This document shows, one piece after another, positions 1 to 51,074 of a stretch of DNA of 64,000 bases. Within the stretch, counting starts at the first letter, position 1. Each line of letters begins with the position of its first letter. The position numbers and the translations under genes were made by a program. Where the stretch lies: the NCBI GenBank assembly GCA_049287005.1, contig JBAQEZ010000003.1, positions 533,808 through 597,807 of the forward strand, given 5' to 3'. The stretch comes from Candidatus Moraniibacteriota bacterium. Lineage in GTDB: Bacteria; Patescibacteriota; Minisyncoccia; Moranbacterales; UBA1568. A model generated the notes under the pieces. That model saw nothing but the letters and a program-made list of their open reading frames with translations, made no database searches and was not told where the DNA came from.

Positions 1-1
1 T

Positions 2-2298: not shown

Positions 2299-2362
2299 AA
2301 ACTTGAAACATTATGGAATATTTCGATGTGCATTCGCTTGATTTGGAAAATGGATCAGGTGT

Positions 2363-3403: not shown

Positions 3404-3427
3404 GAAGTTATTTACTATCGCTATTTT

Positions 3428-5696: not shown

Positions 5697-5759
5697 TAGA
5701 ATAGATATGCTATTGAAATAATTTGTAAAAAAGCATTGGTTATTTTTGATATTAAGAAT

Positions 5760-6737: not shown

Positions 6738-6741
6738 TCTC

Positions 6742-7620: not shown

Positions 7621-7631
7621 CAAACAAACAC

Positions 7632-8369: not shown

Positions 8370-8378
8370 AGACGCGGC

Positions 8379-9395: not shown

Positions 9396-9418
9396 AGTAT
9401 TTTTATGGATGCTCGGAA

Positions 9419-10270: not shown

Positions 10271-10278
10271 ATGGTGTT

Positions 10279-11412: not shown

Positions 11413-11433
11413 GATATTTCGGAAATAATGAGG

Positions 11434-12522: not shown

Positions 12523-12557
12523 GGTTTCAGTATTTATTGCTTAATTTAGTCATTATA

Positions 12558-29897: not shown

Positions 29898-29923
29898 AGC
29901 CCCGAATATTTTTTATCGGCAGA

Positions 29924-31588: not shown

Positions 31589-31589
31589 T

Positions 31590-33434: not shown

Positions 33435-33581
33435 AAGGATCAATATATCAAAAAAAATGAAAGAATCCTCAGATTCTCTTGTACCGATGATTTCCTCCCT
33501 CATGGTACAGGAAACACGACATTTTGCAAAGAAAAGAGAGCAACGCAATAAGGTTTTTTGGCTTTACGCAGGAGGCTGCTC

Positions 33582-33629
33582 ATGGTACCATTGATGCGAC
33601 ACAGGCAATGGATCGCTTTGGGAAAATGA
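33582..33629 (+). promoter_or_regulatory. candidate 15-codon leader ORF (MVPLMRHRQWIALGK) preceded by a consensus SD and ending in an ATGA overlap with the first GT-C paralog
   Basis: GGAGG at 33571-33575 lies 6 nt before the ATG at 33582. Its stop TGA (33627-33629) overlaps the ATG at 33626, which begins MTMQEYIDTLKKHW. Confidence 0.3.
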
Positions 33630-35383: not shown

Positions 35384-35388
35384 ACGGT

Positions 35389-37122: not shown

Positions 37123-37124
37123 TT

Positions 37125-38735
37125 ATGATGAATGTGTTCAGAAAGTTTCAAGAAAGAAAATGGGAATTCATCCTATTGTTCACGATCATCGCGATAGGGA
37201 TGTTTCTCCGTACCTATAACTTCCACGAGTGGTTGCATTTCGGATCCGATCAGGCACGGGATGCCATACTCGTAGACAGGGTTTTGAACGGTACGACGCC
37301 TTGGCCGCTTCTCGGTGCCGACGCCAGTAATACCCATTTCAAGCTTGGTCCCATCTACTATTACTTTCAGATCGTATCCGCCAAGATATTCGGCAGCGAT
37401 GTCTCGGTGTTGGCCTATCCGGATGTATTGTTTTCCATCTTGGCGATTCCTCTTTTTTATTTTCTGCTTCGCAAGTATTTCGAGAAGCACCTGTCTCTGA
37501 TTATGACCGGGCTGTATGCCTCCTCTTTCTATATCATCGAATATTCGCGTTTCGCCTGGAACCCCAATCCTATCCCGTTCTTCGTGATGCTCTTCCTCTT
37601 CGCCCTGATGGAACTCTTCGCGGCACGCGAGAAAACCAGTCTGCTGTGGATAGCCGCGCTCGGCGTAGCGCTCGGCGTCAGCATCCAGCTCCATACGCTC
37701 CTCCTCCTCATTCTGCCGGTGATCTTTTTCTCCGCGTCTGTTTTTTTGCTCGGGAAAAATCGGGGAATATGGGTAAAGATCATCCTGATCGTCGTGATAG
37801 CGCTCATCCTGAATTTCGGCCAGATCAAAGGCGAGATCGAAACGCATGGCGCAAATTCGCAGCTTTTCCTGAAGGCGTTCACTGACAGATCCCAGAGCGG
37901 AACCGGCAGATTTGCAGCAAGCTTCGAAGCCGATCTGTTGTCTCACGCCCAGGCGAACACGCATATACTTTCTTCGCTGGGCGATAGGGGCGTGTTCACT
38001 TTCTTATCCATTCTTTCTCATCCAAGCAGAACGGATAGTCGGATCCTCTACGCGGTGTATGTCTGCGGTGTCATGATCAGCATCGCATTCTCTCTCCTCG
38101 GTTATGGCTTGCTTATCCGGAATGCGTTACAAGAAAAAGACAGCGGAAAGAAGATTTTTCTCGGGCTCATGCTGACGTATGCCGTGCTTTCCTTTCTTGT
38201 CCTGTTTTCTGTCGCGCGAGGCATGCCGCTGCGTTATTTCATCCATACGACGTTTGTCCCGTTCATTCTACTGGGACTCATCATCGATTGGATCCGACTC
38301 ACGATGCCTCGGCAGTCCGCCGCTGTGGCTGTTGTCATTTTCTTGTTTTGTTTCAGCGCCAATGCCTCTGCCATCGCGGCCGAAGCGTCGGATCTGGCGC
38401 ACGGCAGCCGCGGGGATCGCGGGTTCGTCGTTTTGGGTGAAGCGAAACAGATGGTCGATCATATGATAGTTCAAGCGGCCGCGGCAAAAGACGCATATCT
38501 TTTCGGTGGGACGGAGTACGTCGCTACGTATTTCAAACCGCTCCAATATATAGCCGAAAAAAAGGGTTTCCGATTGGAACGCGTCAAAAGGAAAAAAGCT
38601 CCTCTCTCGGATAAGCCGTATTTTTTTATCCAGAAGAGCTCGGGTGTAAGAGAATCATTCGAAATGTCTCAGTTCGAGACCATAGGGAACAAGGACTTTG
38701 GCCGCATCGGCATTTATCAATTAAGAAAACAGTGA
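37125..38735 (+). CDS. GT-C fold membrane glycosyltransferase, tandem paralog 3
   Basis: FLRTYNFHEWLHFGSDQARDA...WPLLGADAS...LGPIYYYFQ...AYPDVLFSILAIP...YSRFAWNPNPIPFF. Confidence 0.6.
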   Translation: MMNVFRKFQERKWEFILLFTIIAIGMFLRTYNFHEWLHFGSDQARDAILVDRVLNGTTPWPLLGADASNTHFKLGPIYYYFQIVSAKIFGSDVSVLAYPDVLFSILAIPLFYFLLRKYFEKHLSLIMTGLYASSFYIIEYSRFAWNPNPIPFFVMLFLFALMELFAAREKTSLLWIAALGVALGVSIQLHTLLLLILPVIFFSASVFLLGKNRGIWVKIILIVVIALILNFGQIKGEIETHGANSQLFLKAFTDRSQSGTGRFAASFEADLLSHAQANTHILSSLGDRGVFTFLSILSHPSRTDSRILYAVYVCGVMISIAFSLLGYGLLIRNALQEKDSGKKIFLGLMLTYAVLSFLVLFSVARGMPLRYFIHTTFVPFILLGLIIDWIRLTMPRQSAAVAVVIFLFCFSANASAIAAEASDLAHGSRGDRGFVVLGEAKQMVDHMIVQAAAAKDAYLFGGTEYVATYFKPLQYIAEKKGFRLERVKRKKAPLSDKPYFFIQKSSGVRESFEMSQFETIGNKDFGRIGIYQLRKQ

Positions 38736-38741
38736 TCCGCT

Positions 38742-40316
38742 ATGAAAAACTTTTTCAGCAGCTTGAATCAGAAGCTCTCTTGGCACGTGTGGGTATTGAT
38801 CGCCTGCCTGTGCATCGGTATCTTTCTCCGTACTTATAACTTCCACGACTGGCTCAGGTTCAATGCCGATCAATCGCGCGACGCCGTGGTGGTGAGTGAT
38901 TATCTGGATGGCACAGAAACACTGCCTCTTCTCGGCCCCAAGGCCGGGGGCACCGGCTTCAGGGTGGGACCGGCTTTCTATTATTTCCAGATAGCGGGAG
39001 CGAAGATCTTCGGTAACGATCCGGACAAGATGGCCTATCCCGATCTTCTTTTCTCTCTTCTCGCCATTCCGCTTTTGTTCTTCTTCCTACGGAAATACTT
39101 CGATATCAGGACAGCGCTCTTGCTCACGGCGATTTTTTCCGTTTCATTCTATGCGATAAAATATTCGCGTTTCGCCTGGAACCCGAACTCGCTCCCATTC
39201 TGGTCACTCTTGTTCCTCTCTGGATTGCATGCGGTTATGACTGCTAAAGAAGAGGCGTGGAAAGGATGGGCAGTGCTGACCGGCGTGGCGCTCGGCATCG
39301 GTGTCCAGCTGCATACGCTCTCGCTCTTATTATTCCCCATGATGACGTTTTCTGCGTTCGGATATCTCTGGTATCTGCGGAAAAAGAATCTCTGGAAGAT
39401 GGTTCTCGTGATCTGTGCCACCGCTCTTTTCCTCAACGCGCCGCAGATAGCGAGCGAATGGAAGACGGGCGGAGAAAACACCAGCGCTTTTCTCGGCGGC
39501 ATAGGGACGAAAGAAGAGAGAGGAAGCGGACTCGTGATGAATGCCGCAAAAGACATTGTCTGTTTCTCGCAGGGCAATACCTACATAGTGTCTTCTTATG
39601 ACAGTTCCGATACGTGCGAGCTGACCAGTATCAAACGAGGATGGAACATCCCCGCTTTCATGCTCGGACTCCTCCTCTTCCTGGGCGGCTTCGGCCTGGC
39701 GATACGCGCTTACAAGAGAGAGGCGGAGCAGGGCCGGAAGTTATTTTTGGGCATTTTTATCCTGTATGCGAGTCTCACGTTCCTGCTTTTGCTCCCGCTG
39801 GCCAATGAGATCTCCATGCGATTTTTTCTGGCTATCATGTTCATGCCGTTCGTTTTCTTGGGGCTGTGGTCTGAGTTCTTAACGGAGAAGTTTTCCAAGA
39901 TCGGATCCATCGGCGCGTGGAGCATCGGAATCATCCTGGTTGCCGCCAATCTCTTGGCCGTGCAGGATTCTTTCGCTACCTCTGCGGCCTATCTCACAAA
40001 TTCGAATGCAGGCATGGACAATGTTCTCCTCAAAGAAGTAGAACTTTCCTCAGCGTTCATCATCGCGCACGCGGGCGAGGCACAGATGGTTGCGGTGGAG
40101 GGCGACGCGAAATACCTTTTCAAAGCCTTGAAGTCTATGCAATACTACACTCACAAGGCAGGTATCAAGCTGGTGCAAAAAAACAAGAAAACTGACCCTG
40201 GAATGCCGGTATTTCTCATAGAGAATACCAAGAGCATAAACGGGATCCTGGAGAACCGGAGTGACATCGTCTCCCATCTGTCATTTGGCAGGTTCACGAT
40301 ATTTTCTCTCAAATAA
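38742..40316 (+). CDS. GT-C fold membrane glycosyltransferase, tandem paralog 4
   Basis: FLRTYNFHDWLRFNADQSRDA...LPLLGPKAGG...VGPAFYYFQ...AYPDLLFSLLAIP...YSRFAWNPNSLPFW. Confidence 0.6.
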   Translation: MKNFFSSLNQKLSWHVWVLIACLCIGIFLRTYNFHDWLRFNADQSRDAVVVSDYLDGTETLPLLGPKAGGTGFRVGPAFYYFQIAGAKIFGNDPDKMAYPDLLFSLLAIPLLFFFLRKYFDIRTALLLTAIFSVSFYAIKYSRFAWNPNSLPFWSLLFLSGLHAVMTAKEEAWKGWAVLTGVALGIGVQLHTLSLLLFPMMTFSAFGYLWYLRKKNLWKMVLVICATALFLNAPQIASEWKTGGENTSAFLGGIGTKEERGSGLVMNAAKDIVCFSQGNTYIVSSYDSSDTCELTSIKRGWNIPAFMLGLLLFLGGFGLAIRAYKREAEQGRKLFLGIFILYASLTFLLLLPLANEISMRFFLAIMFMPFVFLGLWSEFLTEKFSKIGSIGAWSIGIILVAANLLAVQDSFATSAAYLTNSNAGMDNVLLKEVELSSAFIIAHAGEAQMVAVEGDAKYLFKALKSMQYYTHKAGIKLVQKNKKTDPGMPVFLIENTKSINGILENRSDIVSHLSFGRFTIFSLK

Positions 40317-40324
40317 CAACCCTC

Positions 40325-41956
40325 ATGATAAACATATCAATTGAAAACATATCAGCCAGAGTGAAAAAAATACCGCTGCATTTTTGGATATTCGGAGCGA
40401 TCTTGGTTGTGGGAATCTTTCTTAGAACATACGAATTTCGCGATTGGATGGAGTTCAACCCCGATCAGGCGCGTGATGCGCTCCTGGTTCAGGATATGCT
40501 CGGTGGCCAAGAATGGCCGCTCATGGGGCCGCAAGCCGGAAATAAGATTTTCAAGATCGGACCGATTTTCTATTATCTCGAATTTGTCGCCGCGTGGCTC
40601 TTCGGACCATCGGCGGAAAAGATGGCTTATGCTGATTTGTTTTTTTCCATAACCGCCATCGTCCTGGCGTATTTTTTCTTTCGGAAGTTTTTCCAACGCT
40701 CCATCGCGCTGACGATCACCTTCCTCTTCAGCATTTCTTTTTTCGTGGTAACCTATTCGCGGTTCGCCTTCAATCCGAACTCGATTCCTTTTTTCACCCT
40801 CCTGTTCCTTTTCGCGCTGCTTGGGATACTCGATAATGCGCCGAAGGAGAAACTCCGTTTCGCAGCGCTCTTGGGCATCGCGATGGGAATCGGTTTCCAG
40901 CTCCATACGATACTGTTCATCAGCATGCCGCTACTGGCACTGCTGGTACTCGGCTATCTTTTCGCAAAAAAGCAGTTCGTCTGGAAGAGCGTACTTGTAA
41001 CACTCGCCTTTTTCTTCCTGTGCAATGCCGGGCAACTGATGTATGAATGGCAGAACAATGGTGCTAATATGCGCGCATTTTTTACGGATGCGAAATCCAG
41101 CACAGACAGTACCGGGAGAAATTATTGGAATGACCTGTCCAATGATACGCTGTGCCACATCCAGGGGAGCACGTACATCATTGCGTCTCTGGGCAGCGGA
41201 GACAAATGCGACCTGACCAAACTGGTGAGACGGATCGAAAAGAGAGGCATCGCCTTCAATATGGAACAAATCGTCCTCGCGACGGCCGGTTCGGTCTTCG
41301 TTATCGGAGGCATCGCGCTGTTTTTCTTCTACGCGAAGAAAGAAAAGGATCAGCGACGCAAACGCGCTTTCGTATTGGCAGCGGCGTATTGCGTGATCAT
41401 TTTTTTCATCTTGTTGCCTGTTTCATCGACGGTTTCTATGCGGTACTACATCGTGATCGAATTCGTACCCTTTCTGCTGGCCGGCCTCTGGATCCGTTTT
41501 TGTTTGGATACCATCCCCAGGAAACTTGCCCTACTTTGCACAGGAGCGTTCGTGACCGCACTGACCGCGTTCAATATGCTGACGATCAGGAATGCGGTCA
41601 TCGCCTGGAGCAACGGGATTGCCAGCACGGATAATGTGGCTTATTTCGGCGAGGTGGAAGCGATCAGCCGGTTCATGCTTGATCGTTCCCGAGGATCAGA
41701 AATCATCTATCTGACCGGCAAGAAGGCCTACGTCTCCCGGTATGGCAAGCCATTGGAATACTTTGCCAAGCAGAAAGGCGTCATATTAAGCAAGGCTTAC
41801 AGCAAAGACAAAATCATGGTCGGTGACCCATTCTTCTACGTGACCAAAAGAGCTTCTGAAAGAAGCCGCTCTTCCGAGGTGATCAAGGGATTCATCACCG
41901 AAGAGCAAGCGACGTTCGGCAATATAACGATCGTCAAGCTTGTCAGAAAGCCTTGA
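40325..41956 (+). CDS. GT-C fold membrane glycosyltransferase, tandem paralog 5
   Basis: FLRTYEFRDWMEFNPDQARDA...WPLMGPQAGN...IGPIFYYLE...AYADLFFSITAIV...YSRFAFNPNSIPFF. Confidence 0.6.
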   Translation: MINISIENISARVKKIPLHFWIFGAILVVGIFLRTYEFRDWMEFNPDQARDALLVQDMLGGQEWPLMGPQAGNKIFKIGPIFYYLEFVAAWLFGPSAEKMAYADLFFSITAIVLAYFFFRKFFQRSIALTITFLFSISFFVVTYSRFAFNPNSIPFFTLLFLFALLGILDNAPKEKLRFAALLGIAMGIGFQLHTILFISMPLLALLVLGYLFAKKQFVWKSVLVTLAFFFLCNAGQLMYEWQNNGANMRAFFTDAKSSTDSTGRNYWNDLSNDTLCHIQGSTYIIASLGSGDKCDLTKLVRRIEKRGIAFNMEQIVLATAGSVFVIGGIALFFFYAKKEKDQRRKRAFVLAAAYCVIIFFILLPVSSTVSMRYYIVIEFVPFLLAGLWIRFCLDTIPRKLALLCTGAFVTALTAFNMLTIRNAVIAWSNGIASTDNVAYFGEVEAISRFMLDRSRGSEIIYLTGKKAYVSRYGKPLEYFAKQKGVILSKAYSKDKIMVGDPFFYVTKRASERSRSSEVIKGFITEEQATFGNITIVKLVRKP

Positions 41957-41966
41957 GAGTTTCGCC

Positions 41967-43439
41967 TTATTTGTTGGCGTTGAAAAGTTTCGTAAAAGGA
42001 GCGATGTCCGAGGACTTCAATTCGCCGAGAATTTTCAGCAGACCAAAATACGCGAAAAAAAGAAACACGCCGGAAAGTATGAAGCTATACACGCCATGCG
42101 GAAAAAATCTGGCGGCCATAAAGATGATAGCCGCGCTCGCCAGCGAGGCAAAAAGCGTACGGAGGGAGACAGTCGCACGAAAATGCGTATGGGTATACGC
42201 GAGGATAGAGACCATAAGGAAACAGGAAACGATGGTGGTGGAAAGAGCCGCCCCGATGAGCTGATAGCGAGGGATCAGCAGAAAATTGAGAACGATCATA
42301 CCGAGGAAGCCGATGAGCGAGAGCTTCATGGGAATTTTCACCAGTCCGGCACCATTCAAAGCGAAGGAAAGGACATAAAAGACAGTCAGGAATCCGACGC
42401 CAACCGCGAAGATACTCATCGGCAGAGCGGCTGCGGCATACTTCGCGCCATAAAAAATATTCAGTACTTGCGCGGCATAGGCTGCGAGTAGGGTAATCAT
42501 AGGGAAGAGGAGGAGGACGAGCAGACGCAGAGACTTGTTTACGAGACCTTTTGTCTCCTCCGTATCCTCTGCGGCTGTCGATTGCGAAATAGCTGGCAGG
42601 AGGATGATCGTCAGGGCGTAAAAGAGATAGTACGGGATCCTTCCGACCGTGATAGCGGCGTTGTAGATACCAGTGAGATAGTCGCTCTGGAGGAGACTCT
42701 TCACAAAATAGAGATCCAGGGTGAGGATAAATTCGTAGAAAAGAAGGAAAAGCGTGAGTGGTCCGGCGTATGTGAGGATGGTTTTTCCTGAGAAGGACAC
42801 GACTTCATCTTTGGCCTGTTTGGTAGACGGGAAATAGCGATGGGTGATGATGATATCACAGACGAGTGCGATCAAGAAAACGAAAATGGGGGCGGCGATG
42901 TATCCGGACACTGCTCCTTCTACACCGAAGAAATAGGCGAAGCTTACGATGAACAGGATGCGCCCGAGCGCCCGAGCAGTTTTGAGGAAGGCTTGGAGAC
43001 GGAAAAAATGCAGTCCGGTGTAGTAGTAAAAATAAAAGGAGGCGGCCGCAAAGGCTGGGATAATAAGCGATGAAAGCTGAAACAGCGGAGTGAGACTCGG
43101 ATCACGGAGGAGCCACGCGATAATCGGAGAGGAAAAGAAAAAGACGACAGTCACGGCAAACATCAGGATGGCTTGCAGTTTCATTGCTTTGTATTTGATG
43201 CCGAGAATCTTTTCCGGAGCGCTTTCGAAGATTTCCGCCAGATATTTGGACATGGCTGTCGGAATGCCATTGCCGATGAGGATGATGATCATCGTGGTCA
43301 TCGTAACAATGAGGCTGAAGCGACCATAATCAGCTGGCCCAAGGATCCGTCCGACGGAAGAATGAATGACATAGCCGGCGATATTGAAGATGATTTCTGA
43401 CAGCGTGAGCCAGATGAGAGCCGAAGAGAATTTTTTCAT
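41967..43439 (-). CDS. wzx: Wzx-type oligosaccharide flippase (MOP superfamily polysaccharide biosynthesis protein)
   Basis: 490 aa with about 14 TM helices. The N-terminal segment is LIWLTLSEIIFNIAGYVIHSSVGRILGPADYGRFSLI. Its ATG forms an ATGA overlap with the stop of the upstream kinase gene (43436-43439). Confidence 0.7.
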   Translation of the reverse strand: MKKFSSALIWLTLSEIIFNIAGYVIHSSVGRILGPADYGRFSLIVTMTTMIIILIGNGIPTAMSKYLAEIFESAPEKILGIKYKAMKLQAILMFAVTVVFFFSSPIIAWLLRDPSLTPLFQLSSLIIPAFAAASFYFYYYTGLHFFRLQAFLKTARALGRILFIVSFAYFFGVEGAVSGYIAAPIFVFLIALVCDIIITHRYFPSTKQAKDEVVSFSGKTILTYAGPLTLFLLFYEFILTLDLYFVKSLLQSDYLTGIYNAAITVGRIPYYLFYALTIILLPAISQSTAAEDTEETKGLVNKSLRLLVLLLFPMITLLAAYAAQVLNIFYGAKYAAAALPMSIFAVGVGFLTVFYVLSFALNGAGLVKIPMKLSLIGFLGMIVLNFLLIPRYQLIGAALSTTIVSCFLMVSILAYTHTHFRATVSLRTLFASLASAAIIFMAARFFPHGVYSFILSGVFLFFAYFGLLKILGELKSSDIAPFTKLFNANK

Positions 43440-44044
43440 ATTTTCGTTATGATATCCTGAAAAATACTTTCTTTACTTTTGTTGCTATCGATGATGATCA
43501 TCTTCCAATCAGAAATTTTTTGCCTGAAGAGCTTTTGTTTGGCGCGGAGATACTCGATGCCTTGTTCCGGGGCATTTTCTCGCGTCATGATCATTTCTGG
43601 AGCGATATCGAAATAAAAAGCAACGTCGGGACGACGAGATAAGAGATGATTGATAATTGATGACAAAAACGATGACGTTTTTTTTCTTTTGGAAAGATAT
43701 TCTATATTGATGATCGAGTCATAAAAGTAGCGGTCGGAGAGGAGGTAATCGCAGTTTTCTTTTTTCAACTTCCTCAAAAGACAGCGGAAACGAAGCATAT
43801 CGATGAGAAGAAGTTTTTTCCGGAGAACAAGAGTAAACCAAGAAGCCTGGGTAACTGCCTTTTCTTTGCCCGGCTCGAAGGAATACTGTCCTTTGAAGCA
43901 GCGCGCGATCCTATTGGCAATGGAAAATTCGACCGCGTGAAAATACGCGACGTTCCAGTTCTCGCGTTCCAGCTTTTCCCGCACCAACCCTAATTGCGTC
44001 GATTTGCCTGATCCGTCAACACCGGAGAATGTGATGAATTTCAT
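43436..44044 (-). CDS. divergent thymidylate-kinase-like P-loop (d)NMP/nucleotide kinase
   Basis: Walker A FSGVDGSGKST at the N-terminus, as in Tmk (FEGxDGSGKST). LSDRYFYDS is the DRY motif. It lacks the TREPGGT NMP-binding segment of canonical Tmk, so its substrate is uncertain. Confidence 0.55.
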   Translation of the reverse strand: MKFITFSGVDGSGKSTQLGLVREKLERENWNVAYFHAVEFSIANRIARCFKGQYSFEPGKEKAVTQASWFTLVLRKKLLLIDMLRFRCLLRKLKKENCDYLLSDRYFYDSIINIEYLSKRKKTSSFLSSIINHLLSRRPDVAFYFDIAPEMIMTRENAPEQGIEYLRAKQKLFRQKISDWKMIIIDSNKSKESIFQDIITKI

Positions 44045-44048
44045 GATG

Positions 44049-45554
44049 TTAGTACATGATAATGGATATCGGCTGCATCTTGATTACCGGCTTGACGATG
44101 TCGTTTCGGATGACGCTTTCGATGACGTCAGCGGCGCGTTTGTAATGCGAAGAATCCTGCTCGATCACTTTTGAAGATCGGCCGTTATAAAGCTTCACGC
44201 CTTTCTGTTCGAGCTTCCTGTCGAGCTCGCCTTTGTTTTTCGGCACGCTGGCGTCTGTCTTCTCGACGGATTTTCCGGCGCCGTGATTGCAGGAGAAGAA
44301 GCTCGATACATTGCCATCCTGACCGACACACAGATAGGCTTCGGAACTCATGGATGTCGGAATGAAAGCCGGTTCGCCGGTTTCGCGGAAAAGCGGATGA
44401 TCTTGCATGCGCTCCTTGCCGTAGGCGCGGCTCGTTCCGTTCCGGTGGACCCAGATGTCTTTTTCAAAATGCTTTTCTTTGGAAACCAGGATGTGTGGCA
44501 TATCGTAGAGGAGGTCCATCTCGATTTCCCGTCCGAGCACCTTCTTGGCTGTTGCGGCGATGTTATGCGTGATAGTGGCGCGATTGGCATGCGCGAAATT
44601 GGAACAGGCATTGCGAGCGGCCATATACAGCTGTCCATCCTCGCCATCGCCATCGAAAGTGATGAGTGGCTCCTTTTTTCCGAAATCGGATGCGCGGATC
44701 TTCTTGGCAATCATGTTGACCGTTTTTCTGTACGGTGTCGACCAGAAAAAACGCCCGAGGTTCATGAGAATCGCAGTAGATTTGTGCTCGCGTTTCTTGG
44801 CGGTGTACATATACATCGTATACTGCCCGAGGATGCCGGAGCCGCAGTGCACCATGAAGAGATATTGACCTTTACGCACGTTGAATTTCCGAGCGGTTTC
44901 TTCGTCCAGAATGTCGGAAACTTTCATCAGATCGACGAAATGATTGCCGGCCGCTCCGAGAACACCCGCGCGAAACTGAGCGAAAAACAAGAAGAGCTTG
45001 GGTATAACATGAAAGATATCTTGTTTCGACTTTTCCTTCTCGAAGAAGTTGCCACGCTCGATGCAATTCTCGGCTTCGTTCTTGGTCTTGATACCGAGAT
45101 ACGCGATGAGCGGACGGATGCCTTGGCGACAGATATCGACGATAACCCGAAAGGGGAGATACGTGCCGACATAGGTCTTGGTCGGTACAGTGGCAACGAG
45201 CGCGCGGAACAGCTTGTCGATTTCTTCCAGCGTGATATTGGTCTCATCCAGATCGGTGCGAACGAGACGCATGCCGCAGCCTGGATCGCTATCGTTTATT
45301 TGCGGGAGGATAAAGCGTTCCGAAGTGACGGTCGTCCCGGTGGCGTTCTTCCGTCCGGGCTTGGAATGGACATCCGCCATAGCGGCGATGTGATCGAAGA
45401 CGAATTCTTGACTCGCCACGCTTTCGAGCTGGTCGAGCGTCTCCTGGCCCGGCATGAGCGTATCCTGTATATGAAAAACGACCGGCACCTGCATCTTGTC
45501 GGTCTTCCATTCGCTTTTATATCCTGAGTGTTCGGTAAAATTGTTTCCGTTCAT
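44049..45554 (-). CDS. rtcB: RtcB family RNA 3'-phosphate/2',3'-cyclic-phosphate ligase
   Basis: All metal and GMP-binding motifs align with archaeal and bacterial RtcB: MADVHSKPG (DxH), DPGCGMRLVRTDL (Cys), GNHFVDL, MVHCGSGILG, NFAHANRATITHN, DMPHILVS and CNHGAGKS (nucleophilic His). The C-terminal KPVIKMQPISII matches the RtcB end. Its ATG forms an ATGA overlap with the upstream GT4 stop (45551-45554). Confidence 0.85.
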   Translation of the reverse strand: MNGNNFTEHSGYKSEWKTDKMQVPVVFHIQDTLMPGQETLDQLESVASQEFVFDHIAAMADVHSKPGRKNATGTTVTSERFILPQINDSDPGCGMRLVRTDLDETNITLEEIDKLFRALVATVPTKTYVGTYLPFRVIVDICRQGIRPLIAYLGIKTKNEAENCIERGNFFEKEKSKQDIFHVIPKLFLFFAQFRAGVLGAAGNHFVDLMKVSDILDEETARKFNVRKGQYLFMVHCGSGILGQYTMYMYTAKKREHKSTAILMNLGRFFWSTPYRKTVNMIAKKIRASDFGKKEPLITFDGDGEDGQLYMAARNACSNFAHANRATITHNIAATAKKVLGREIEMDLLYDMPHILVSKEKHFEKDIWVHRNGTSRAYGKERMQDHPLFRETGEPAFIPTSMSSEAYLCVGQDGNVSSFFSCNHGAGKSVEKTDASVPKNKGELDRKLEQKGVKLYNGRSSKVIEQDSSHYKRAADVIESVIRNDIVKPVIKMQPISIIMY

Positions 45555-46669
45555 AGACTGTCGTATATTTTTTCGTATTGTTGGGCGGTATTTTTGAGAT
45601 CGAAATGATCCTGCACGAAACGGCGCGCGTTGTTGCCAAGACGCTCATATTCCTCTCGATTATCCCTCAAATAAGCCACTGATTCGATGAGTTTGACTCC
45701 GGAATCTTTCGGAATGGTAACACAAATGTCATGATTTGAAAACTCTCGAAATTGCTCCAAATCAGAGAGAATGACCGGCGTGCCGCAAGCGTAGGCTTCG
45801 ATGATCACCAGCGGCACATCGAATTTTCCTGTGAGATTTGCGACAGGGAAAAGGATGATGTCAGCGGTGTTGTAGAGAGCCGCCATATCAGGGATCGTAT
45901 CTGAGAAAGAGACGTACTGCAGCACGTTCGCTTCCGAGAAACGTTTTTTGACGGCTTCTTTTTTCTTGGCATCTTCTGCATTTTTTACGCGGCAAGCGAA
46001 GACGAAACGGATATCAGTATCAGGATTTCTCGTAAAGAACTCTATGAAACAATCAGTCAGCATATCGGTAGCGCCGAGACGGATGTATTCGCCTGGATAG
46101 ACAACCATAAAATGGTTTTTACTGAGACCCAGCCGTTCCAGGATACGTGCATCTTTCGGTTCTGGACGATAGCGATCCAGGTCAATGCCCGGGTAGATAC
46201 GCATGACGTTTCCAAATCCGAGCTGCTCCAGTTTTTCTTTGGAACGGTCGGTATAGACAACGAGCCGATCAGCGAAGAAGAGATTTCTGAGCTCGTCAGC
46301 GGCATAGAGGTCATCGCGGAGCGTGGCGATTGTCTGCAGGGTTTTACCCTTCGTCGGTTTGGCGAACCACTTGATGAGATTCATATTCTGCTTGGTCGGC
46401 GTGAAGAGATAATGCGTGATATCGAATTGATTGCGGATACGCCGGAGATAGGCCAAAAATTCAAACTTCGCCTTCAAGTCGAAACGACCGCTTGAAAAAA
46501 TCGGCTCTTCATGGACGTTATCGGGCATGCCGCTCAATTTCTCTCTGGTTGTCAGAAGCGTCAAAGAATAGTTTCTCACTTCTTTGCCGAGAAAATAGGC
46601 GAAATTTTTGGAAGCCTCATCCCAAGGAGGAACGAGCGGTCGCGTGGCGAGGAGTATTTTTTTGGACAT
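45551..46669 (-). CDS. GT-B fold glycosyltransferase (family 4-like)
   Basis: The C-terminal domain ends IIEAYACGTPVILSD, an EX7E-like region. Length is 372 aa. Confidence 0.6.
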   Translation of the reverse strand: MSKKILLATRPLVPPWDEASKNFAYFLGKEVRNYSLTLLTTREKLSGMPDNVHEEPIFSSGRFDLKAKFEFLAYLRRIRNQFDITHYLFTPTKQNMNLIKWFAKPTKGKTLQTIATLRDDLYAADELRNLFFADRLVVYTDRSKEKLEQLGFGNVMRIYPGIDLDRYRPEPKDARILERLGLSKNHFMVVYPGEYIRLGATDMLTDCFIEFFTRNPDTDIRFVFACRVKNAEDAKKKEAVKKRFSEANVLQYVSFSDTIPDMAALYNTADIILFPVANLTGKFDVPLVIIEAYACGTPVILSDLEQFREFSNHDICVTIPKDSGVKLIESVAYLRDNREEYERLGNNARRFVQDHFDLKNTAQQYEKIYDSL

Positions 46670-47051: not shown

Positions 47052-49091
47052 TCAGTTTTTTCGTTCGTAGATATGGATATCATTTGAGACGTAAATGCGA
47101 GAAAATTGCTGTGACTTCTCAAATTGGGTCGTATCGAGATGCGGGTTGATCACCACGAAACGGGTGTTCAGATCATCATAACATTTCTTACCGCTTTCCG
47201 TATTGGGTATGGAAATCATAGAGAGCGTACATTGTTCACGGTTGGGATTGTCCTCATAACGCTTGAAGAAACCGCGTGAAAGCGGATACGCATAATCGCG
47301 CAGGAAGAAAAGCTTCATCCAGGCATCGGCGGCGATATAGTTGTGGTCTTTCAAGATGATATCTTCTGGCGTGGTATTGGCAGCGAGATAGCGTGAAGCG
47401 GCAAAGGTTTGCAGCGCCCCGAGAGCCTTGCTATTGGGCAGGAGTGTCTGGTTGTTATCGAGCGATCCGTCTCCGGCAGCGAAAACGAAAAAAGTGAGGC
47501 TACTCAAGAGAATGAGGACGCTGGGAATCCGAAATTGAACCGCTTGATTTCGCAGGGTGGCAAAAAAGGCGATCGTGGCAAAAGCTGCCAAGAGACCGAT
47601 CGGAAAAGAAAAATAGGTCACGATGCGATTGGAGGGGATGTCTATAAAAAGCCATTCCGGATGGAGCGTCATCACGAAAAGAATAACCGACCATCCGATG
47701 AGAAACGCTCCTGCATAGCGCCTCTGTTTACCGAGCGCGAAGATGAGACAACCTCCGACGAGACCGGTGGCTACTCTGGCCGATCCGGAAGAGGAGGTTA
47801 TTTGCAGGAAAGAAAGTCCGGTACGAGTATTTTTGGTCGGTGCGCCGAGGACCGTACCGACAGCATTGGTTTCGATATAAGTCGGCATAGCGACGAGGAA
47901 AAAGAAGGCGACACAGAAAGAAGCGACGAGGAGCGGACCAGGCGACAAGATGAGTTTCCACCAGGAAAAGAAAAGCGTTCTCCATGTACTGAAATGGGCG
48001 AAGCTATACATCAGCAGAGATACGACGAGGACAAAGAGCAACATCAGCGTACTCAGATGATGTGTGTAGGCCAGCGTGAAAACGAGAAAAAATGCGAGCG
48101 CGAGAAAACCCGGGCGTTTTTCTTTGAGCGCACGGAACAGGATGAGAAAAATAAGTGGAATAAAAAAATTGCCAAAGGTGTTTCCGACGACACCGCCCGA
48201 GACGAATTTCGCTTCCGGCGAAGCGAGCGTATAGAGAGGACCGAAGAAAAAAAGTGCCATCAGAGCGATATTGTGCGGTGTGAATACCTTGTGGGAAAGG
48301 AAGGGGCTTGCCATATTGGCGGCGAAACGCAGGGCGAGCATGAACAACGTAAGCACGCTGAGCATATTGACAAGCAGCAGGAGGATGACGGGGAAAGCGG
48401 AAAGGAAGTCTAGTTTCACGAACATGTTGATAGCTGCAAAAGGCAAATGTTCCCCGATGATGAAGTCGGCGATAGGTTGCGGATCCGTCAGTTGATATAT
48501 ATTATTGGTGTCGGTGATGATTTCCTGTTTCGCGTATGCGGGCAACGTTCCCGTAGTGGCAATGAGTTTGGACCAGTACATATGATGGCCGAGGTCGGTC
48601 GCAGTCGGGAGCACGGCATGCATCAGATAGATAACCTTGATCAGAAGCGTCAATCCGAGCAGAAGCATGAACAGCCATCCTTGTCGCCTGGTGAACGGGA
48701 GGGAGGCTGCGTGTTCAATAGGCTGGTTTCCTGTGTTTTTTTGCTTCCGTTCTACGAGCCATGCTACCAAAAAGAGCATGCCCAACACGAGAAAAATACC
48801 CAGCATGATTGAAAATATATCTATACGAATATGCAGTTTCCCTATGAGAATCATCAGAAAATCAATCAGGCCAACACTGATGCCGAAAGAAAAAATAAGC
48901 GCTTCTAAAGGAAAAAAAGAGGCGGTTTTGCGAAAAAACAAGCGCAGGAGAATCCAGCCCGGTAAAAACAAGAGTATTCCCGTCGCGAGAGAAAAAAGGA
49001 ATGTATTGAGAATCGGATGCATGGCTATTATATGGTTCTTTTGATAAAGGTTTTCAGCGCCTCGACATAGAGACGCGCGATGATATTCCAA
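47052..49091 (-). CDS. large polytopic integral membrane protein, putative glycan polymerase/transferase
   Basis: 679 aa with more than 14 hydrophobic segments. A soluble C-terminal domain with Cys residues is probably extracytoplasmic. No recognised motif. Confidence 0.45.
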   Translation of the reverse strand: MEYHRASLCRGAENLYQKNHIIAMHPILNTFLFSLATGILLFLPGWILLRLFFRKTASFFPLEALIFSFGISVGLIDFLMILIGKLHIRIDIFSIMLGIFLVLGMLFLVAWLVERKQKNTGNQPIEHAASLPFTRRQGWLFMLLLGLTLLIKVIYLMHAVLPTATDLGHHMYWSKLIATTGTLPAYAKQEIITDTNNIYQLTDPQPIADFIIGEHLPFAAINMFVKLDFLSAFPVILLLLVNMLSVLTLFMLALRFAANMASPFLSHKVFTPHNIALMALFFFGPLYTLASPEAKFVSGGVVGNTFGNFFIPLIFLILFRALKEKRPGFLALAFFLVFTLAYTHHLSTLMLLFVLVVSLLMYSFAHFSTWRTLFFSWWKLILSPGPLLVASFCVAFFFLVAMPTYIETNAVGTVLGAPTKNTRTGLSFLQITSSSGSARVATGLVGGCLIFALGKQRRYAGAFLIGWSVILFVMTLHPEWLFIDIPSNRIVTYFSFPIGLLAAFATIAFFATLRNQAVQFRIPSVLILLSSLTFFVFAAGDGSLDNNQTLLPNSKALGALQTFAASRYLAANTTPEDIILKDHNYIAADAWMKLFFLRDYAYPLSRGFFKRYEDNPNREQCTLSMISIPNTESGKKCYDDLNTRFVVINPHLDTTQFEKSQQFSRIYVSNDIHIYERKN

Positions 49092-50107
49092 TGGTAATGC
49101 GCTTCGGTGTAGCGAAGAGCTCTCTCTCCCAGCGCGCGGCGTTCATTTTCATCAGACAGAAGCGATATGATGGCTTTTTCAAAAGCCGCATGGTTTCCCG
49201 GTTCGACGAGCAGGCCGTTCTCGTTGTGGCGAATAGCGTCTTTCAATCCCTCCAGACTGGCGGCGACGACCGGTCGTCCGCAGGCAGTCGCTTCGATGAC
49301 GGCGATGCCGAAACCCTCCATATCGCCCGGAACGCGAATGTTCGGTTGTATAAAAATGTCAGCCGTGTTGAGGAGAAGATTGCGATCCGCATCAGAAACC
49401 CGTCCCAACATCTTGACCTGACGTTCCCTGCCGGTTTCTCGTATGGCGGCTCTGATATTTTCTTCTTCCGGTCCAGCACCGGCCAGCACATAGAGGACGG
49501 TGGGCGGCAACTGTGGCAGCACGGCACGGATGAACCATGCCGCTCCCTTGCGCTTGGCCAGGCGTCCGGCAGTGAGGAGCACTTGTTTCTGAGTCAGATC
49601 AACACGGAGCAGCTTGCCCAGGTCTGTCCTCGTGTAGTTTTTCCGTAAGGTTTCCGGATCGATACCATTGGGGATTACGGTTATTTTTTCTTCCGGAATC
49701 TTCTTCGCAACGGCGACAGCGCGCGTTTCCTGGCTCACGGCGATCAATCCGTCCAGGGAAGGCAGAAAACACCGTACCCAGAATCGTTGATACGCATCAT
49801 TCGCATAAGTGAGGTCGAGTCCATGCACGATGGAGACGATCGTTTTCCGGGGATAGACAAGCTTGATGAGAAATCCCACGATGGCCAGCACGCCATCGCC
49901 CAAAAGAATCACATCGTAGCGGGAGGCCGTACAAAGCATGCGGAGCGTGATATAGGGGAAAAACAAGACCAGCGCCTTCTTGCCGTGACGATTCGCAACG
50001 GTCGTGACGGTGGCAAATTTCTTGAGCCAAACAGAAAGGGCGTAATTCTGGTTCTCGATGCCGCCTGTCACCGGTGGATAGGCGCGCGAGATGAATACTA
50101 TTCTCAT
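49028..50107 (-). CDS. family 4 glycosyltransferase
   Basis: EGFGIAVIEATACGRPVVAAS. The start is placed at MRIVFIS. The longest ORF reaches 50128. Confidence 0.75.
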   Translation of the reverse strand: MRIVFISRAYPPVTGGIENQNYALSVWLKKFATVTTVANRHGKKALVLFFPYITLRMLCTASRYDVILLGDGVLAIVGFLIKLVYPRKTIVSIVHGLDLTYANDAYQRFWVRCFLPSLDGLIAVSQETRAVAVAKKIPEEKITVIPNGIDPETLRKNYTRTDLGKLLRVDLTQKQVLLTAGRLAKRKGAAWFIRAVLPQLPPTVLYVLAGAGPEEENIRAAIRETGRERQVKMLGRVSDADRNLLLNTADIFIQPNIRVPGDMEGFGIAVIEATACGRPVVAASLEGLKDAIRHNENGLLVEPGNHAAFEKAIISLLSDENERRALGERALRYTEAHYHWNIIARLYVEALKTFIKRTI

Positions 50108-50108
50108 A

Positions 50109-51074
50109 TTACTTCTTGTATTTTTCAACTCGCATGCGATAGAGGATTTCTTCGTTCAGCATCCGCGCCCCCTTCACCATATCCGCGATCAGACCGAAAA
50201 TAACCAATTGGAGCCCGATGAGAAACAAGATCGCGGAAGCGAACAGGTAATTCCGATAGGGAGCGACTTTCATATCTGGAAAATAGAAGCCAAGGAAAAT
50301 CGTAAGCAAGAGCACCGCAATCAGAATAAGAATCGTTCCCGGGGTAGCGAAGAATTTCATGGGACGGATATCCCGGAACGCTTTGACGATGATACGGGCG
50401 CTGTTGTTGACATATTTCCAGATCGTTTTGACCACGCGCGATTTCCGTCCTTCGAAATATGTCACTTGTACCGGGATCCATGTCAGCTTCAGATTTTTTC
50501 CGATAGCGTCAATGATAGTCTCTTGGGTATAGGTAAAACCGGCAGGGTCGTTCAATCGAAGAAGCGTTTCGCGATTATGACCACGAAATCCGCAGGTGAG
50601 ATCAACAACAGGTCTGCCGAGCGCTGATCCGACAATCCACGCTCCCAATCTGTTTAATTTGTCTTTCAGGAAAGGAATATTTTCTGCGGTACTTTTCGAA
50701 AAACGATCTGCGATAACCATATCCGCCGTATGAGCGAGAATCGGATCAATGATTTTTTGAATGTCATTTGGATCGAATTGTCCATCGGCATCGATATTGA
50801 CGAGGATGTCAGCTCCATTTTCGAGAGCACTTTCACGAGCCGTCCGAAACATGACGCCCAAACCGCGATTGCCATCATGAGAAATGACAATATCGGCGCC
50901 ACCGGCATGAGCCTCTTGTACGGTGCGATCAGTGGATCCATCATCGATAACTTGCACGAGTACTTCATCGATACCGATAAAGGTACGCGGAATATTTTTG
51001 ATAGTGTTTTCAATTTTCGCTTCTTCATTAAAAGCCGGCAGATTGACTATGAGTCGCATATGTGAGAAATTCAA
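50109..51074 (-). CDS. polyprenyl-phosphate glycosyltransferase, GtrB/DPM1-like GT2 with C-terminal TM helices
   Basis: LIVNLPAFNEEAKI...VIDDGSTDRT...IDADGQFDP. The C-terminal TM pair is FFATPGTILILIAVLLLTIF and LFASAILFLIGLQLVIFGLIADMV. Confidence 0.8.
   Translation of the reverse strand: MNFSHMRLIVNLPAFNEEAKIENTIKNIPRTFIGIDEVLVQVIDDGSTDRTVQEAHAGGADIVISHDGNRGLGVMFRTARESALENGADILVNIDADGQFDPNDIQKIIDPILAHTADMVIADRFSKSTAENIPFLKDKLNRLGAWIVGSALGRPVVDLTCGFRGHNRETLLRLNDPAGFTYTQETIIDAIGKNLKLTWIPVQVTYFEGRKSRVVKTIWKYVNNSARIIVKAFRDIRPMKFFATPGTILILIAVLLLTIFLGFYFPDMKVAPYRNYLFASAILFLIGLQLVIFGLIADMVKGARMLNEEILYRMRVEKYKK

Follow-up and report, generated by a model that had tools for sequence, protein, structure and literature searches.

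The locus analyzed here raises the question of why a gene for an RtcB-family RNA ligase lies among genes for envelope-glycan synthesis, and of what RtcB and the kinase encoded next to it do there. We analyzed a 64-kb stretch (the window) of a 766,823-bp contig from a Candidatus Moraniibacteriota (CPR) genome; Moranbacteria are very small bacteria that have not been cultured. On its minus strand, genes for a glycosyltransferase (GT), RtcB, a Tmk-like kinase and a Wzx flippase follow one another (Table 1). The GT and RtcB genes overlap by ATGA (45551-45554), 4 nt separate RtcB from the kinase, and the kinase stop overlaps the Wzx start, again by ATGA (43436-43439). A first-pass annotation had given these four genes and three junctions with coordinates that we found to be exact. 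Overlapping or short gene junctions are ordinary in compact operons; the feature that goes beyond chance is not the junctions but the gene order, which is kept in 18 of 18 distinct related loci. The GC content of the genes equals that of their neighbors, which argues against a recent insertion. The GT matched Pfam Glycos_transf_1 at about E=1e-12; its C-terminal domain scored above cut-off against PF00534, PF13692 and PF13524, and its N-terminal Glyco_transf_4 match fell below cut-off. Wzx scored 83 bits against PF01943 and 55 bits against PF13440, with a weaker match to MurJ, and one relative (L092) carries, besides Wzx, a distinct MurJ-only gene 7 kb off.

Table 1. Genes of the glycan block and sequence features of RtcB and the kinase, with positions in the window.
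Feature	Position	Strand	Remarks
Nucleotide-sugar dehydrogenase, first gene of the block	51601-52887	-	UDPG_MGDP_dh N, central and C domains; TIGR03026 409 bits, above cut-off
Small conserved ORF, 93 aa	51078-51359	-	Same-position ORF of 77-86 aa in L007, L008, L094, L095
GT2, polyprenyl-phosphate sugar synthase-like (AglJ/PpgS-like)	50109-51074	-	PF00535; collinear in relatives
GT4 glycosyltransferase	49028-50128	-	Glycos_transf_1 E=2.7e-36, Glyco_transf_4; collinear in relatives
DUF6541/DUF1616-type polytopic membrane protein	47052-49091	-	PF20176; DUF1616 and DUF6541 in L094, L095; collinear in relatives
Small conserved ORF, 142 aa	46694-47122	-	Start uncertain; overlaps the gene at 47052-49091; same-position homologues in every locus reaching there
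GT4-type glycosyltransferase, directly upstream of RtcB	45551-46669	-	372 aa; Glycos_transf_1, Glyco_trans_1_4, Glyco_trans_1_2
RtcB-family ligase, clade-specific variant	44049-45554	-	501 aa; PF01139 E=2.6e-71
RtcB His424 codon, nucleotidyl-accepting histidine (NHGAG)	44283-44285	-	Aligns to P. horikoshii H404 and human H428; clade-invariant
RtcB C-terminal Met500-Tyr501, replacing canonical Lys-Gly	44052-44057	-	-MY ending versus -KG
Spacer from RtcB stop to kinase start, 4 nt (CATC)	44045-44048	-	Insertion hotspot in relatives
Non-canonical Tmk-fold P-loop kinase	43436-44044	-	202 aa; PF02223 E=3.5e-11
Kinase Walker A/P-loop, G8-VDGSGKS-T16 (FSGVDGSGKST)	43997-44023	-	G8, G11, G13, K14 invariant in 97 family representatives
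Kinase long basic helix, residues 69-95, net charge +8	43760-43840	-	Stands where canonical Tmk has dTMP-binding helices (AlphaFold2)
Kinase D104-R-Y-F-Y-D109 motif	43718-43735	-	DRYxYD versus canonical DRYxxS; D104, R105, D109 invariant
Wzx/MOP-type polysaccharide flippase	41967-43439	-	490 aa; PF01943 E=2.7e-23, PF13440

The four genes form the 3' end of an envelope-glycan block of about ten genes, in the order NDP-sugar dehydrogenase, small ORF, polyprenyl-P-sugar synthase GT2, GT4, DUF6541 membrane protein, small ORF, GT4, RtcB, kinase and Wzx. The dehydrogenase was also found in L001, L004, L005, L007, L008, L092, L094 and L095, and may be a transcription unit of its own. The top NCBIfam matches of the GT2, AglJ and PpgS, were both under cut-off, and searches of Pfam and NCBIfam returned no match for either small ORF (93 and 142 aa). 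The embedding of RtcB and the kinase in an envelope-glycan operon, which the first-pass annotation had singled out as unusual, proved to be real and deeply conserved when gene order was compared in relatives: the block is collinear in all 18 loci, down to 36-45% protein identity. Identities to the window copies covered similar ranges for RtcB (36-76%), the kinase (41-68%), Wzx (38-76%) and the GT (42-69%), indicating that all four co-diverge, while the genes flanking the block differ from lineage to lineage. All block-bearing loci came from one clade, so the kept order may reflect inheritance rather than selection. No gene intervenes between GT4 and RtcB in 16 of 16 loci, although the ATGA overlap itself is not kept among relatives. 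The kinase and Wzx lie no more than 14 nt apart in 11 of 18 loci. RtcB and the kinase are adjacent or separated by no more than 102 nt in 11 of 18 loci; in the other seven the junction is interrupted by at least 450 nt with inserted genes (NUDIX, ROK, Wzy_C, HD, and a radical-SAM plus integrase element), some of them on the opposite strand. This junction is the least conserved of the block, and its breakage in 7 of 18 loci means that the two genes are not a fixed stoichiometric pair, as had been suggested at first.

Among the window ORFs with a family assignment (several had no match), all but RtcB, the kinase and a few at the window ends are related to glycans or the envelope. The exceptions at the ends encode a HAD-like hydrolase, an S41 protease and a rhodanese. 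A Pfam scan of the approximately 50 window ORFs found no RtcA, RtcR, archease or PrfH, and scans of the window for tRNAs and Rfam RNAs, including Ro/Y RNA, were empty; nothing nearby therefore points to RNA work, and RtcB is the only RNA-type gene within about 60 kb of glycan genes. The PADLOC anti-phage defence models gave no match except that of the kinase to VakA, which covered the P-loop only (E=6e-5). We found no publication describing this gene arrangement.

We then compared RtcB with characterized members of its family. The protein scored 241.5 bits against PF01139 (cut-off 27) over its full length, residues 42-499 of 501, and its best PDB match was P. horikoshii RtcB (E=1.9e-35, about 126 bits). 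The first-pass claim that every catalytic motif is retained, including the Cys, the GNHF and the nucleophile His, was borne out: D90/C93, G203-N-H-F206, H236, H354 and N423-H424-G-A-G are all present. D90, C93, H205, H236, H354 and H424 align to D95, C98, H203, H234, H329 and H404 of P. horikoshii RtcB, and among 48 orthologues, down to 36% identity, each of these metal-binding and nucleophile residues is either unchanged or conserved to at least 90%. Judged from these residues, a catalytically intact RtcB is supported. On the other hand, the side chains that contact the guanine base in human RTCB (Glu230, Ser409 and Lys504) are all replaced, by D208, A406 and M500, respectively, the last being read at a C-terminus where the alignment stops two residues short of the end in both proteins. 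The ending is -IMY in 120 of 120 close orthologues and -[IL]MY or -LTY in divergent ones. This remodelling of the base pocket suggests that the enzyme may prefer an NTP other than the canonical GTP. The three changed contacts fit a functional shift and a housekeeping hitchhiker equally well.

The kinase was found to be Tmk-like, and the evidence supports a non-orthodox member of that family. Its sequence holds the FSGVDGSGKST and DRY motifs and lacks TREPGGT, just as first described. It passed the Pfam domain cut-off (PF02223, 43.6 bits, cut-off 27) and fell under that of the TIGR00041 equivalog (44.8 bits, cut-off 83.25). The AlphaFold2 model had a pLDDT of 93, and hhalign matched the protein to a canonical Tmk profile with 99.8% probability at 18% identity. 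The P-loop, the DRY motif and the lid Arg155 of the Tmk fold are all present, whereas the acceptor side is altered. The 33 canonical Tmks compared have a conserved xEP motif that the kinase lacks; hhalign places F35-H36-A37 at the position of xEP, and no [RK]EPG motif occurred in any of the 150 nearest cluster representatives. The family has gained invariant H36, D82 and D109. The basic helix, with a family mean charge of +5.6, carries invariant R75, D82, R85 and F86. The LLFxADR-type F/DR helix of Tmk had no match in the kinase in a part of the alignment that is uncertain; since hhalign is unreliable at about residues 66-80, W69/F70 and R75 may yet make up a nucleobase site.

These data bear on the possibility that nothing unusual is at work, the kinase being the organism's only, highly divergent dTMP kinase and RtcB a ligase of RNA repair or splicing, both frozen in an unrelated operon in the manner of adk and map in the spc ribosomal operon. 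Tmk is a clear homologue of the kinase and its nearest relative in sequence and fold, and some sources label the protein dTMP kinase. Throughout the clade the block essentially always has the kinase, and in one copy (1800 proteins at E of at most 1e-10). CPR genomes are compact, with operons of mixed function. Neither the window nor any related locus yielded a second Tmk-like ORF, but the window search covered about 64 kb of a 767-kb contig, and the absence there weighs little. The score far under the equivalog cut-off, the loss of xEP and the new invariant residues all speak against a dTMP kinase, as do the genomic partners described below, and we consider this explanation unlikely.

Across the loci the kinase travels with Wzx rather than with RtcB, and it stays beside Wzx even where the remaining block is not adjacent. 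In a sister subclade whose kinases are 34-37% identical to that of the window, kinase and Wzx adjoin in L096 and L098 and probably also in L097, whose truncated downstream gene has no assignment. AT-rich non-coding DNA lies upstream in L097 and L098, and L099 has the kinase alone, next to a divergent gene that by inspection looks like GlyRS. Searches of L096-L099 by tblastn returned no RtcB; these contigs span only 1.0-8.8 kb, so RtcB may lie elsewhere in those genomes. The kinase-Wzx pairs without RtcB indicate that the kinase is apparently independent of RtcB. We also examined the surroundings of other divergent Tmk-like kinases, which have DRYxYD and the helix Asp in common with the window kinase. 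Glycosyltransferase genes were found within 5 kb in 7 of 25 such loci, as compared to 0 of the 48 loci with a canonical Tmk (Fisher p=3e-4), and further neighbors encoded Phosphodiest, NTP_transf_5, a choline-kinase-like protein, a sulfotransferase and DegT. These distant glycan-context kinases score about equally against the window-kinase family profile and the canonical Tmk profile, and their context is a suggestive guide to the window family and not proof.

The features of the helix and of the RtcB-kinase junction could also be read as those of a module for healing and sealing RNA ends that entered the glycan operon by insertion. With its basic helix as the RNA-binding part, the kinase would phosphorylate a hydroxyl of the RNA, or it would prepare ends or supply nucleotide for RtcB. 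The close spacing of the two genes in 11 of 18 loci and the conserved charge of the helix agree with such a module, the invariant His and Asp could serve as a general base for a hydroxyl acceptor, and in three loci the genes between RtcB and the kinase include NUDIX genes whose weaker Pfam match is to Nudt16-like decapping enzymes. However, RtcB joins ends bearing a 5'-OH, and a 5'-kinase would oppose it; we know of no RNA 3'-kinase. The fold of the kinase is nearest to Tmk and deoxynucleoside kinases and not to Pnk/Clp1, its basic, hydrophobic helix is equally compatible with membrane binding, and neither the poorly kept junction nor the sister-subclade kinases found with Wzx and without RtcB favor a dedicated pair. 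We regard an RNA module as very improbable.

Reading both substrates, the co-transcription and the role of RtcB from gene content, conservation, residue patterns, fold and contexts, we tentatively favor, with a probability of about 0.45, a kinase that serves as an enzyme of the glycan pathway and an RtcB that has become fixed in the operon as a variant RNA ligase. The operon of about ten genes, vertically inherited, would build and flip a cell-envelope glycan or lipoglycan in Moranbacteria. The kinase would be a distinct branch of the Tmk fold and not an orthodox dTMP kinase, with the ATP site kept and the xEP of the dTMP site lost. Its lost and gained residues, together with its context, suggest that it phosphorylates a non-dTMP acceptor, most likely a sugar hydroxyl or one borne by a membrane-associated (lipid-linked) intermediate that Wzx is about to flip. 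RtcB would be a functional histidine-nucleotidylating enzyme that joins 3'-phosphate and 5'-OH ends, probably still acting on RNA and co-transcribed, thus co-regulated, with envelope synthesis. It would have been fixed between GT4 and the kinase in the Moranbacteria ancestor and would not be an obligate partner of the kinase. The inseparability of RtcB from GT4 (16/16), its standing as the lone RNA-type gene and its changed guanine contacts weigh against this reading.

The same three observations would suit a pathway in which both proteins make a phosphodiester in the glycan by reuse of RNA-ligase chemistry. The kinase would phosphorylate a sugar or lipid-linked intermediate, the His424-NMP of RtcB would activate that phosphate as an NMP-anhydride, the hydroxyl of a second unit would attack, and Wzx would flip the phosphate-bridged glycopolymer; RtcB would then use a nucleotide other than GTP. 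RtcB directly follows GT4 across deep divergence, the whole clade has replaced the guanine-recognition triad without losing the catalytic core, the adjoining non-dTMP kinase could provide the phosphomonoester, and both the lack of other RNA-related genes in the window and the lack of a described precedent accord with this pathway. To our knowledge, however, nucleic acids are the only substrates on which any RtcB has been demonstrated to act, and nothing in our analysis shows phosphodiester bridges in the glycan. The kinase-Wzx pairs without RtcB on the short sister-subclade contigs, and the unrelated or opposite-strand genes that part RtcB from the kinase in 7 of 18 loci, also count against it, and such a pathway seems distinctly unlikely. 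If it were true, an RtcB clade would have been recruited from RNA ligation to envelope-glycan biosynthesis, and glycopolymers or lipoglycans with phosphodiester bridges would be made by a ligase-type route. The gene arrangement itself is real and of ancient standing; within it, RtcB may act on the sugar polymer or may only be co-transcribed.

When compared with P. horikoshii PH1602, E. coli RtcB and human RTCB, the window RtcB has the same PF01139 span, metal ligands, HGAG His nucleophile and GNHF Asn, but it differs in having D208, A406 and M500 for Glu, Ser and Lys, the -MY end, HGAGK for the canonical HGAGR, and an unaligned insert at about residues 248-296. Its context also differs from that of known RtcBs. 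The rtcBA-rtcR, RtcB-archease and RtcB2-PrfH operons likewise pair RtcB with co-transcribed partner genes, but their defining partners (RtcA cyclase, sigma-54 RtcR, archease, PrfH, Ro/Y RNA) are missing from the window, and the neighbors here are glycosyltransferases and a flippase. The window kinase has the P-loop, DRY and lid arginine in common with Tmk (PF02223/TIGR00041), and differs in its low identity and sub-equivalog score, in F-H-A for xEP and DRYxYD for DRYxxS, in one long basic helix in place of the alpha3/alpha4 dTMP-binding helices, and in having Wzx as its operon partner. The divergent kinases of L022, L043, L047, L069, L071 and L081, none of which is characterized, resemble it in lacking xEP and in having a helix with a conserved Asp, DRYxYD and an adjoining GT4; they are 25-36% identical to it, have a more hydrophobic helix, and are partnered by NTP_transf_5 and PF01663 phosphodiesterase-like proteins, with neither Wzx nor RtcB as a neighbor. 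From general knowledge, an analogy for the arrangement as a whole is the spc ribosomal-protein operon, which holds adk, map and secY and likewise keeps a nucleotide-kinase-fold gene and an unrelated enzyme at a fixed place over long evolutionary distances. The spc genes, however, encode orthodox members of their families, whereas the window RtcB and kinase have altered substrate-binding residues.

The ORF call and a reading of the coding strand placed four minus-strand genes, encoding a GT4-type glycosyltransferase (GT), RtcB, a Tmk-like P-loop kinase and a Wzx flippase, exactly where the first-pass annotation had put them. The stop and start codons overlap as ATGA at the GT/RtcB and kinase/Wzx junctions, and the RtcB/kinase junction reads TAA-CATC-ATG with a gap of 4 nt, all as claimed. 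A scan of the block, the series of ~10 envelope-glycan genes whose 3' end these four genes form, gave promoter and terminator counts at the shuffle level, which carry no information on operon structure. An antisense ORF within rtcB was taken to be a shadow ORF of this well-conserved gene and not a gene.

Coordinates of the features in the window and in related or metagenomic loci (L handles)
Feature	Sequence	Coordinates	Strand	Details
GT (GT4-type, upstream of RtcB)	window	45551-46669	minus	372 aa; Pfam Glycos_transf_1
RtcB	window	44049-45554	minus	501 aa; PF01139, E=2.6e-71, almost full length
Kinase	window	43436-44044	minus	202 aa; PF02223 Thymidylate_kin, E=3.5e-11; locus tag WAV46_03905
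Wzx flippase	window	41967-43439	minus	490 aa; Pfam Polysacc_synt
Antisense ORF within rtcB	window	44283-45527	plus	414 aa
Low-GC region	window	1-18000		GC 36-44%, against 48-54% in the remainder of the window
GT-C array	window	28173-41956		seven PMT_2/ArnT-like ORFs
ORF inside GT-C array	window	35389-37122		no Pfam match
GH28/beta-helix gene	window	29924-31588		interspersed in GT-C array
LPG_synthase_TM / flippase-like protein	window	26588-27514	plus	TIGR00374, stand-alone membrane protein
LPG_synthase_TM / flippase-like protein	L095	13452-14375		TIGR00374, stand-alone membrane protein
NUDIX insert	L002	2519-2968	coding strand	RtcB-kinase junction
NUDIX insert	L005	8817-9302	coding strand	RtcB-kinase junction
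NUDIX insert	L014	234-743	coding strand	RtcB-kinase junction
Integrase-bearing insert	L016	2380-6447		4 kb; RtcB-kinase junction
MurJ-only gene	L092	17518-19305		7 kb from the block

We collected loci from GTDB genomes, exact-protein look-ups and a metagenome scan, which gave 18 distinct loci in total. The exact-sequence look-up returned no record for the window RtcB and one 15-kb Logan contig for the kinase; homologues of RtcB (72-80% identity) and of the kinase (56-73%) were found to share contigs of equal size, some merely 3-4 kb long. The first-pass annotation had proposed conservation of the gene order in relatives as a check, and the order RtcB, kinase, Wzx on a single strand held in 18/18 loci, with GT4 directly upstream of RtcB in all 16 loci extending far enough; this check thus left the finding standing. 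All block-bearing loci belonged to one clade. Wherever longer sequence existed in the related loci, the entire block was collinear (NDP-sugar dehydrogenase, small ORF, GT2, GT4, DUF6541/DUF1616 membrane protein, small ORF, GT4, RtcB, kinase, Wzx). Genes outside it varied by lineage, for example MFS, Metallophos, NosD-like, GT2 and a PMT_2 array downstream and MazG/deformylase, GT4 and HD in the upstream flank. Identity to the window copy was 36-76% for RtcB, 41-68% for the kinase and 38-76% for Wzx across the 18 distinct loci, and 42-69% for the GT in the loci reaching it; the four genes co-diverged, and the GC of the RtcB-kinase region equalled that of its neighbours. Because of the collinear order, the co-divergence and the neighbour-like GC, we infer that the block is old and vertically inherited. 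On the latter two observations we also rejected the idea that RtcB and the kinase had been inserted horizontally in recent times.

We then compared the junction gaps across loci, measured with approximate start positions. No gene intervened between GT and RtcB in any of 16 loci, where the gaps measured -29 to 113 nt except for a single gap of 445 nt that contained no ORF; the ATGA overlap at this junction was not general. The kinase-Wzx gap was 14 nt or less in 11/18 loci. The RtcB-kinase junction was broken by at least 450 nt in 7/18 loci, so that the 'fixed stoichiometric coupling' of these two genes described earlier is a trait of the window genome and not of the system. The inserts at this junction comprised NUDIX genes in three lineages, a ROK sugar kinase, opposite-strand genes of the Wzy_C type (one with an HD protein) and a methyltransferase, radical-SAM and tyrosine-integrase element, whose presence in L016 indicates that the junction is able to accept mobile DNA. 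The inserted NUDIX genes also matched, more weakly, the Pfam family of Nudt16-like decapping enzymes, and the substrates of these hydrolases could be nucleotide-sugars or RNA ends. A pairing of RtcB with the kinase for RNA healing and sealing, a reading on which both their constant order and their interrupted junction bear, appears quite improbable.

When the window ORFs were assigned by Pfam and NCBIfam, nearly all those with a family were envelope-glycan related. They included GDP-mannose dehydratase, epimerases, two NDP-sugar dehydrogenases, many GT2 and GT4 genes, methyltransferases, one AsnB-like gene, the PMT_2 (ArnT-like GT-C) ORFs, a GH28, a Wzy-like gene and LytR-CpsA-Psr. The exceptions near the window ends were a HAD-like hydrolase, an S41 protease and a rhodanese, with several further ORFs lacking a match, and RtcB and the kinase were the only misfits among the assigned genes of the mid-region. 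The tRNA and Rfam scans of the window were both empty, and neither RtcA, RtcR, archease nor PrfH was present within it. PADLOC gave no defence-system match in the window, and a conflict-system reading was dropped on that ground. The low-GC region, which carries GDP-mannose 4,6-dehydratase, GT2, GT4, several methyltransferases and the AsnB-like amidotransferase, has the appearance of a polysaccharide cluster that is variable or was acquired horizontally. Five ORFs of the GT-C array stand in tandem on the plus strand, converging on Wzx, and the relatives have similar arrays that are arranged differently. A TIGR00374 membrane protein was observed near the block in two lineages.

The closest solved structures to the window RtcB were those of P. 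horikoshii RtcB (E=1.9e-35), T. thermophilus RtcB and human RTCB. In agreement with the first-pass annotation, the alignment showed all metal ligands and the nucleophile to be retained (D90, C93, N204/H205, H236, H354, H424), and the catalytic residues were invariant or at least 90% conserved in 48 orthologues, some of them at only 36-55% identity. RtcB is under selection for catalysis. In human RTCB, Glu230, Ser409 and Lys504 hydrogen-bond the guanine base of GMP (Kroupova et al. 2021, PMC8668186). These positions align to D208, A406 and M500 of the window RtcB, and its C-terminus carries Met-Tyr where the canonical enzyme has Lys-Gly. Among the matches listed, 120/120 close orthologues ended in -IMY, and divergent orthologues ended in -[IL]MY or -LTY. 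Judging from these substitutions, the nucleotide preference of the RtcB of this clade is probably altered; with the help of archease, even canonical RtcB can use ATP, dGTP or ITP (review PMC10630183). A rebuilt guanine pocket around a preserved catalytic core would also suit a joint role in which the kinase supplies a phosphate and RtcB activates and joins it into a glycan phosphodiester, as would the facts that RtcB is never apart from the upstream GT4 and is the sole RNA-type gene in ~60 kb. We consider this role distinctly unlikely, given a junction with the kinase that is interrupted in 7/18 loci, and favor an RtcB that is co-regulated with envelope synthesis and would not be a partner of the kinase.

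The earlier description of the kinase as Tmk-like but without the TREPGGT dTMP-binding segment was borne out. It scored 44.8 bits against the NCBIfam dTMP-kinase equivalog, for which the cut-off is 83.25, and its significant PDB sequence matches were all thymidylate kinases, though weak (best E=6e-7). An AlphaFold2 model from 106 homologues (pLDDT 93) matched Tmk structures in Foldseek with TM 0.63-0.73 at 17-22% identity. Profile-profile alignment to 33 canonical Tmks (probability 99.8%, identity 18%) set F35-H36-A37 onto the canonical x-E-P element of the dTMP site; the LLFxADR base-binding helix had no counterpart in a stretch where this alignment is uncertain. An exhaustive search over 1.84 billion cluster representatives at E<=1e-3 yielded 701 relatives, and the [RK]EPG motif occurred in none of the best 150 of them. 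The family-invariant residues were the P-loop, H36, R75, D82, R85/F86, D104-R-x-F-x-D109, R155, Q161, Y165 and K169. Residues 69-95 form a single long helix in the model, with a net charge of +8 in the window kinase (family mean +5.6), 52% hydrophobic residues and an uninformative amphipathic moment (muH 0.13). Since the ATP site is intact, the xEP loop is missing and His and Asp residues are newly invariant, the acceptor should differ from dTMP, and is plausibly a hydroxyl. The same features bear on the view that RtcB and the kinase are housekeeping hitchhikers, the kinase being the only, divergent Tmk of the genome. This we judge unlikely, although neither the window nor the ~300 kb covered by related loci, which amount to only a few percent of a genome, contained a second Tmk-like ORF. 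Two longer relatives were also seen, P0354 (405 aa), apparently with two P-loop kinase modules in tandem, and P0353 (503 aa), with a C-terminal extension of ~300 aa that has no family assignment.

Three lines of evidence point to the kinase belonging with Wzx and the glycan genes. The first is its tight junction with Wzx. The second comes from a sister subclade (L096-L099), whose kinases are 34-37% identical and in which tblastn found RtcB in 0/4 loci on contigs of 1.0-8.8 kb. There the kinase adjoins Wzx in two loci (L096, L098) and probably in a third, L097, whose downstream gene is truncated and has no family assignment. It is preceded by AT-rich non-coding DNA of ~210 nt in L097 and ~216 nt in L098, whereas the L096 sequence extends just 36 nt upstream of it; GT2, LCP and GT2 genes follow downstream in L098. 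In L099 the kinase stands alone, adjoining a divergent gene readable by inspection as GlyRS. The third line, which we count as supportive only, is the glycan-gene context of divergent metagenomic Tmk-like kinases (25-36% identical) that have the DRYxYD motif and the helix Asp in common with the window kinase. Their neighbours include GT4, PF01663 phosphodiesterase-like, NTP_transf_5, choline-kinase-like, sulfotransferase and DegT genes. GT neighbours lay within 5 kb in 7/25 of these loci as compared to 0/48 canonical Tmk loci (Fisher p=3e-4), the latter drawn from a metagenome scan with the kinase alignment that used the P-loop pattern only and returned mostly canonical Tmks. For the distant glycan-context kinases, the family profile and the canonical Tmk profile gave scores of about the same height; these kinases were rejected as members of the same family on this ground and kept as related non-canonical kinases.

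Among these loci, four (L022, L069, L071, L081) share a recurring uncharacterised module of GT4, divergent Tmk-like kinase and NTP_transf_5 (PF14907) and/or PF01663 phosphodiesterase-like genes, which may be a kinase, nucleotidyltransferase and transferase route decorating a glycan; L069 has two Tmk-like genes. Adjoining Tmk-like genes in tandem, both weakly similar to canonical Tmk, occurred in L054, L059, L061, L062, L064, L084, L086 and L090. MurJ was rejected as the identity of the block flippase, since L092 has a separate MurJ, which means that lipid II is not flipped by the MOP protein of the block.

Taken together, we tentatively favor (probability roughly 0.45) a conserved envelope-glycan or lipoglycan operon in which the kinase is a flippase-linked pathway enzyme and RtcB a variant end-joining enzyme, most likely acting on RNA. 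The kinase would represent a non-canonical branch of the Tmk fold that phosphorylates a non-dTMP acceptor, and RtcB, presumably still catalytic, would have taken its fixed place in the operon in the ancestor of the Moranbacteria. The observation made in the first pass is thus confirmed and extended, and its interpretation is partly supported. The new elements are a subfamily of RtcB whose base pocket is remodelled and whose place in a glycan operon is fixed, and a branch of Tmk-fold kinases, so far uncharacterised, that is tied to Wzx. This branch would be an uncharacterised enzyme class independent of the RtcB question, and its current automatic annotation as 'thymidylate kinase' can lead astray those who reconstruct the metabolism of CPR bacteria. 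RtcB and the kinase, being small, soluble proteins, lend themselves to direct assay.

A literature search yielded no description of RtcB in a CPR glycan operon. To our knowledge, RtcB is known solely as a nucleic-acid end-joining enzyme, in the contexts of repair and splicing. Here, an entire lineage of bacteria has retained an RtcB that is catalytically intact, although its base pocket is rebuilt, at a fixed spot in an envelope-glycan operon, beside a Tmk-fold kinase that has lost xEP. If RtcB is merely co-transcribed, it would be a new subfamily with probably altered NTP use, linking RNA repair to envelope synthesis in reduced CPR genomes; if it acts in the pathway, this would be the first RtcB reaction outside nucleic acids and a new way to glycan phosphodiesters.
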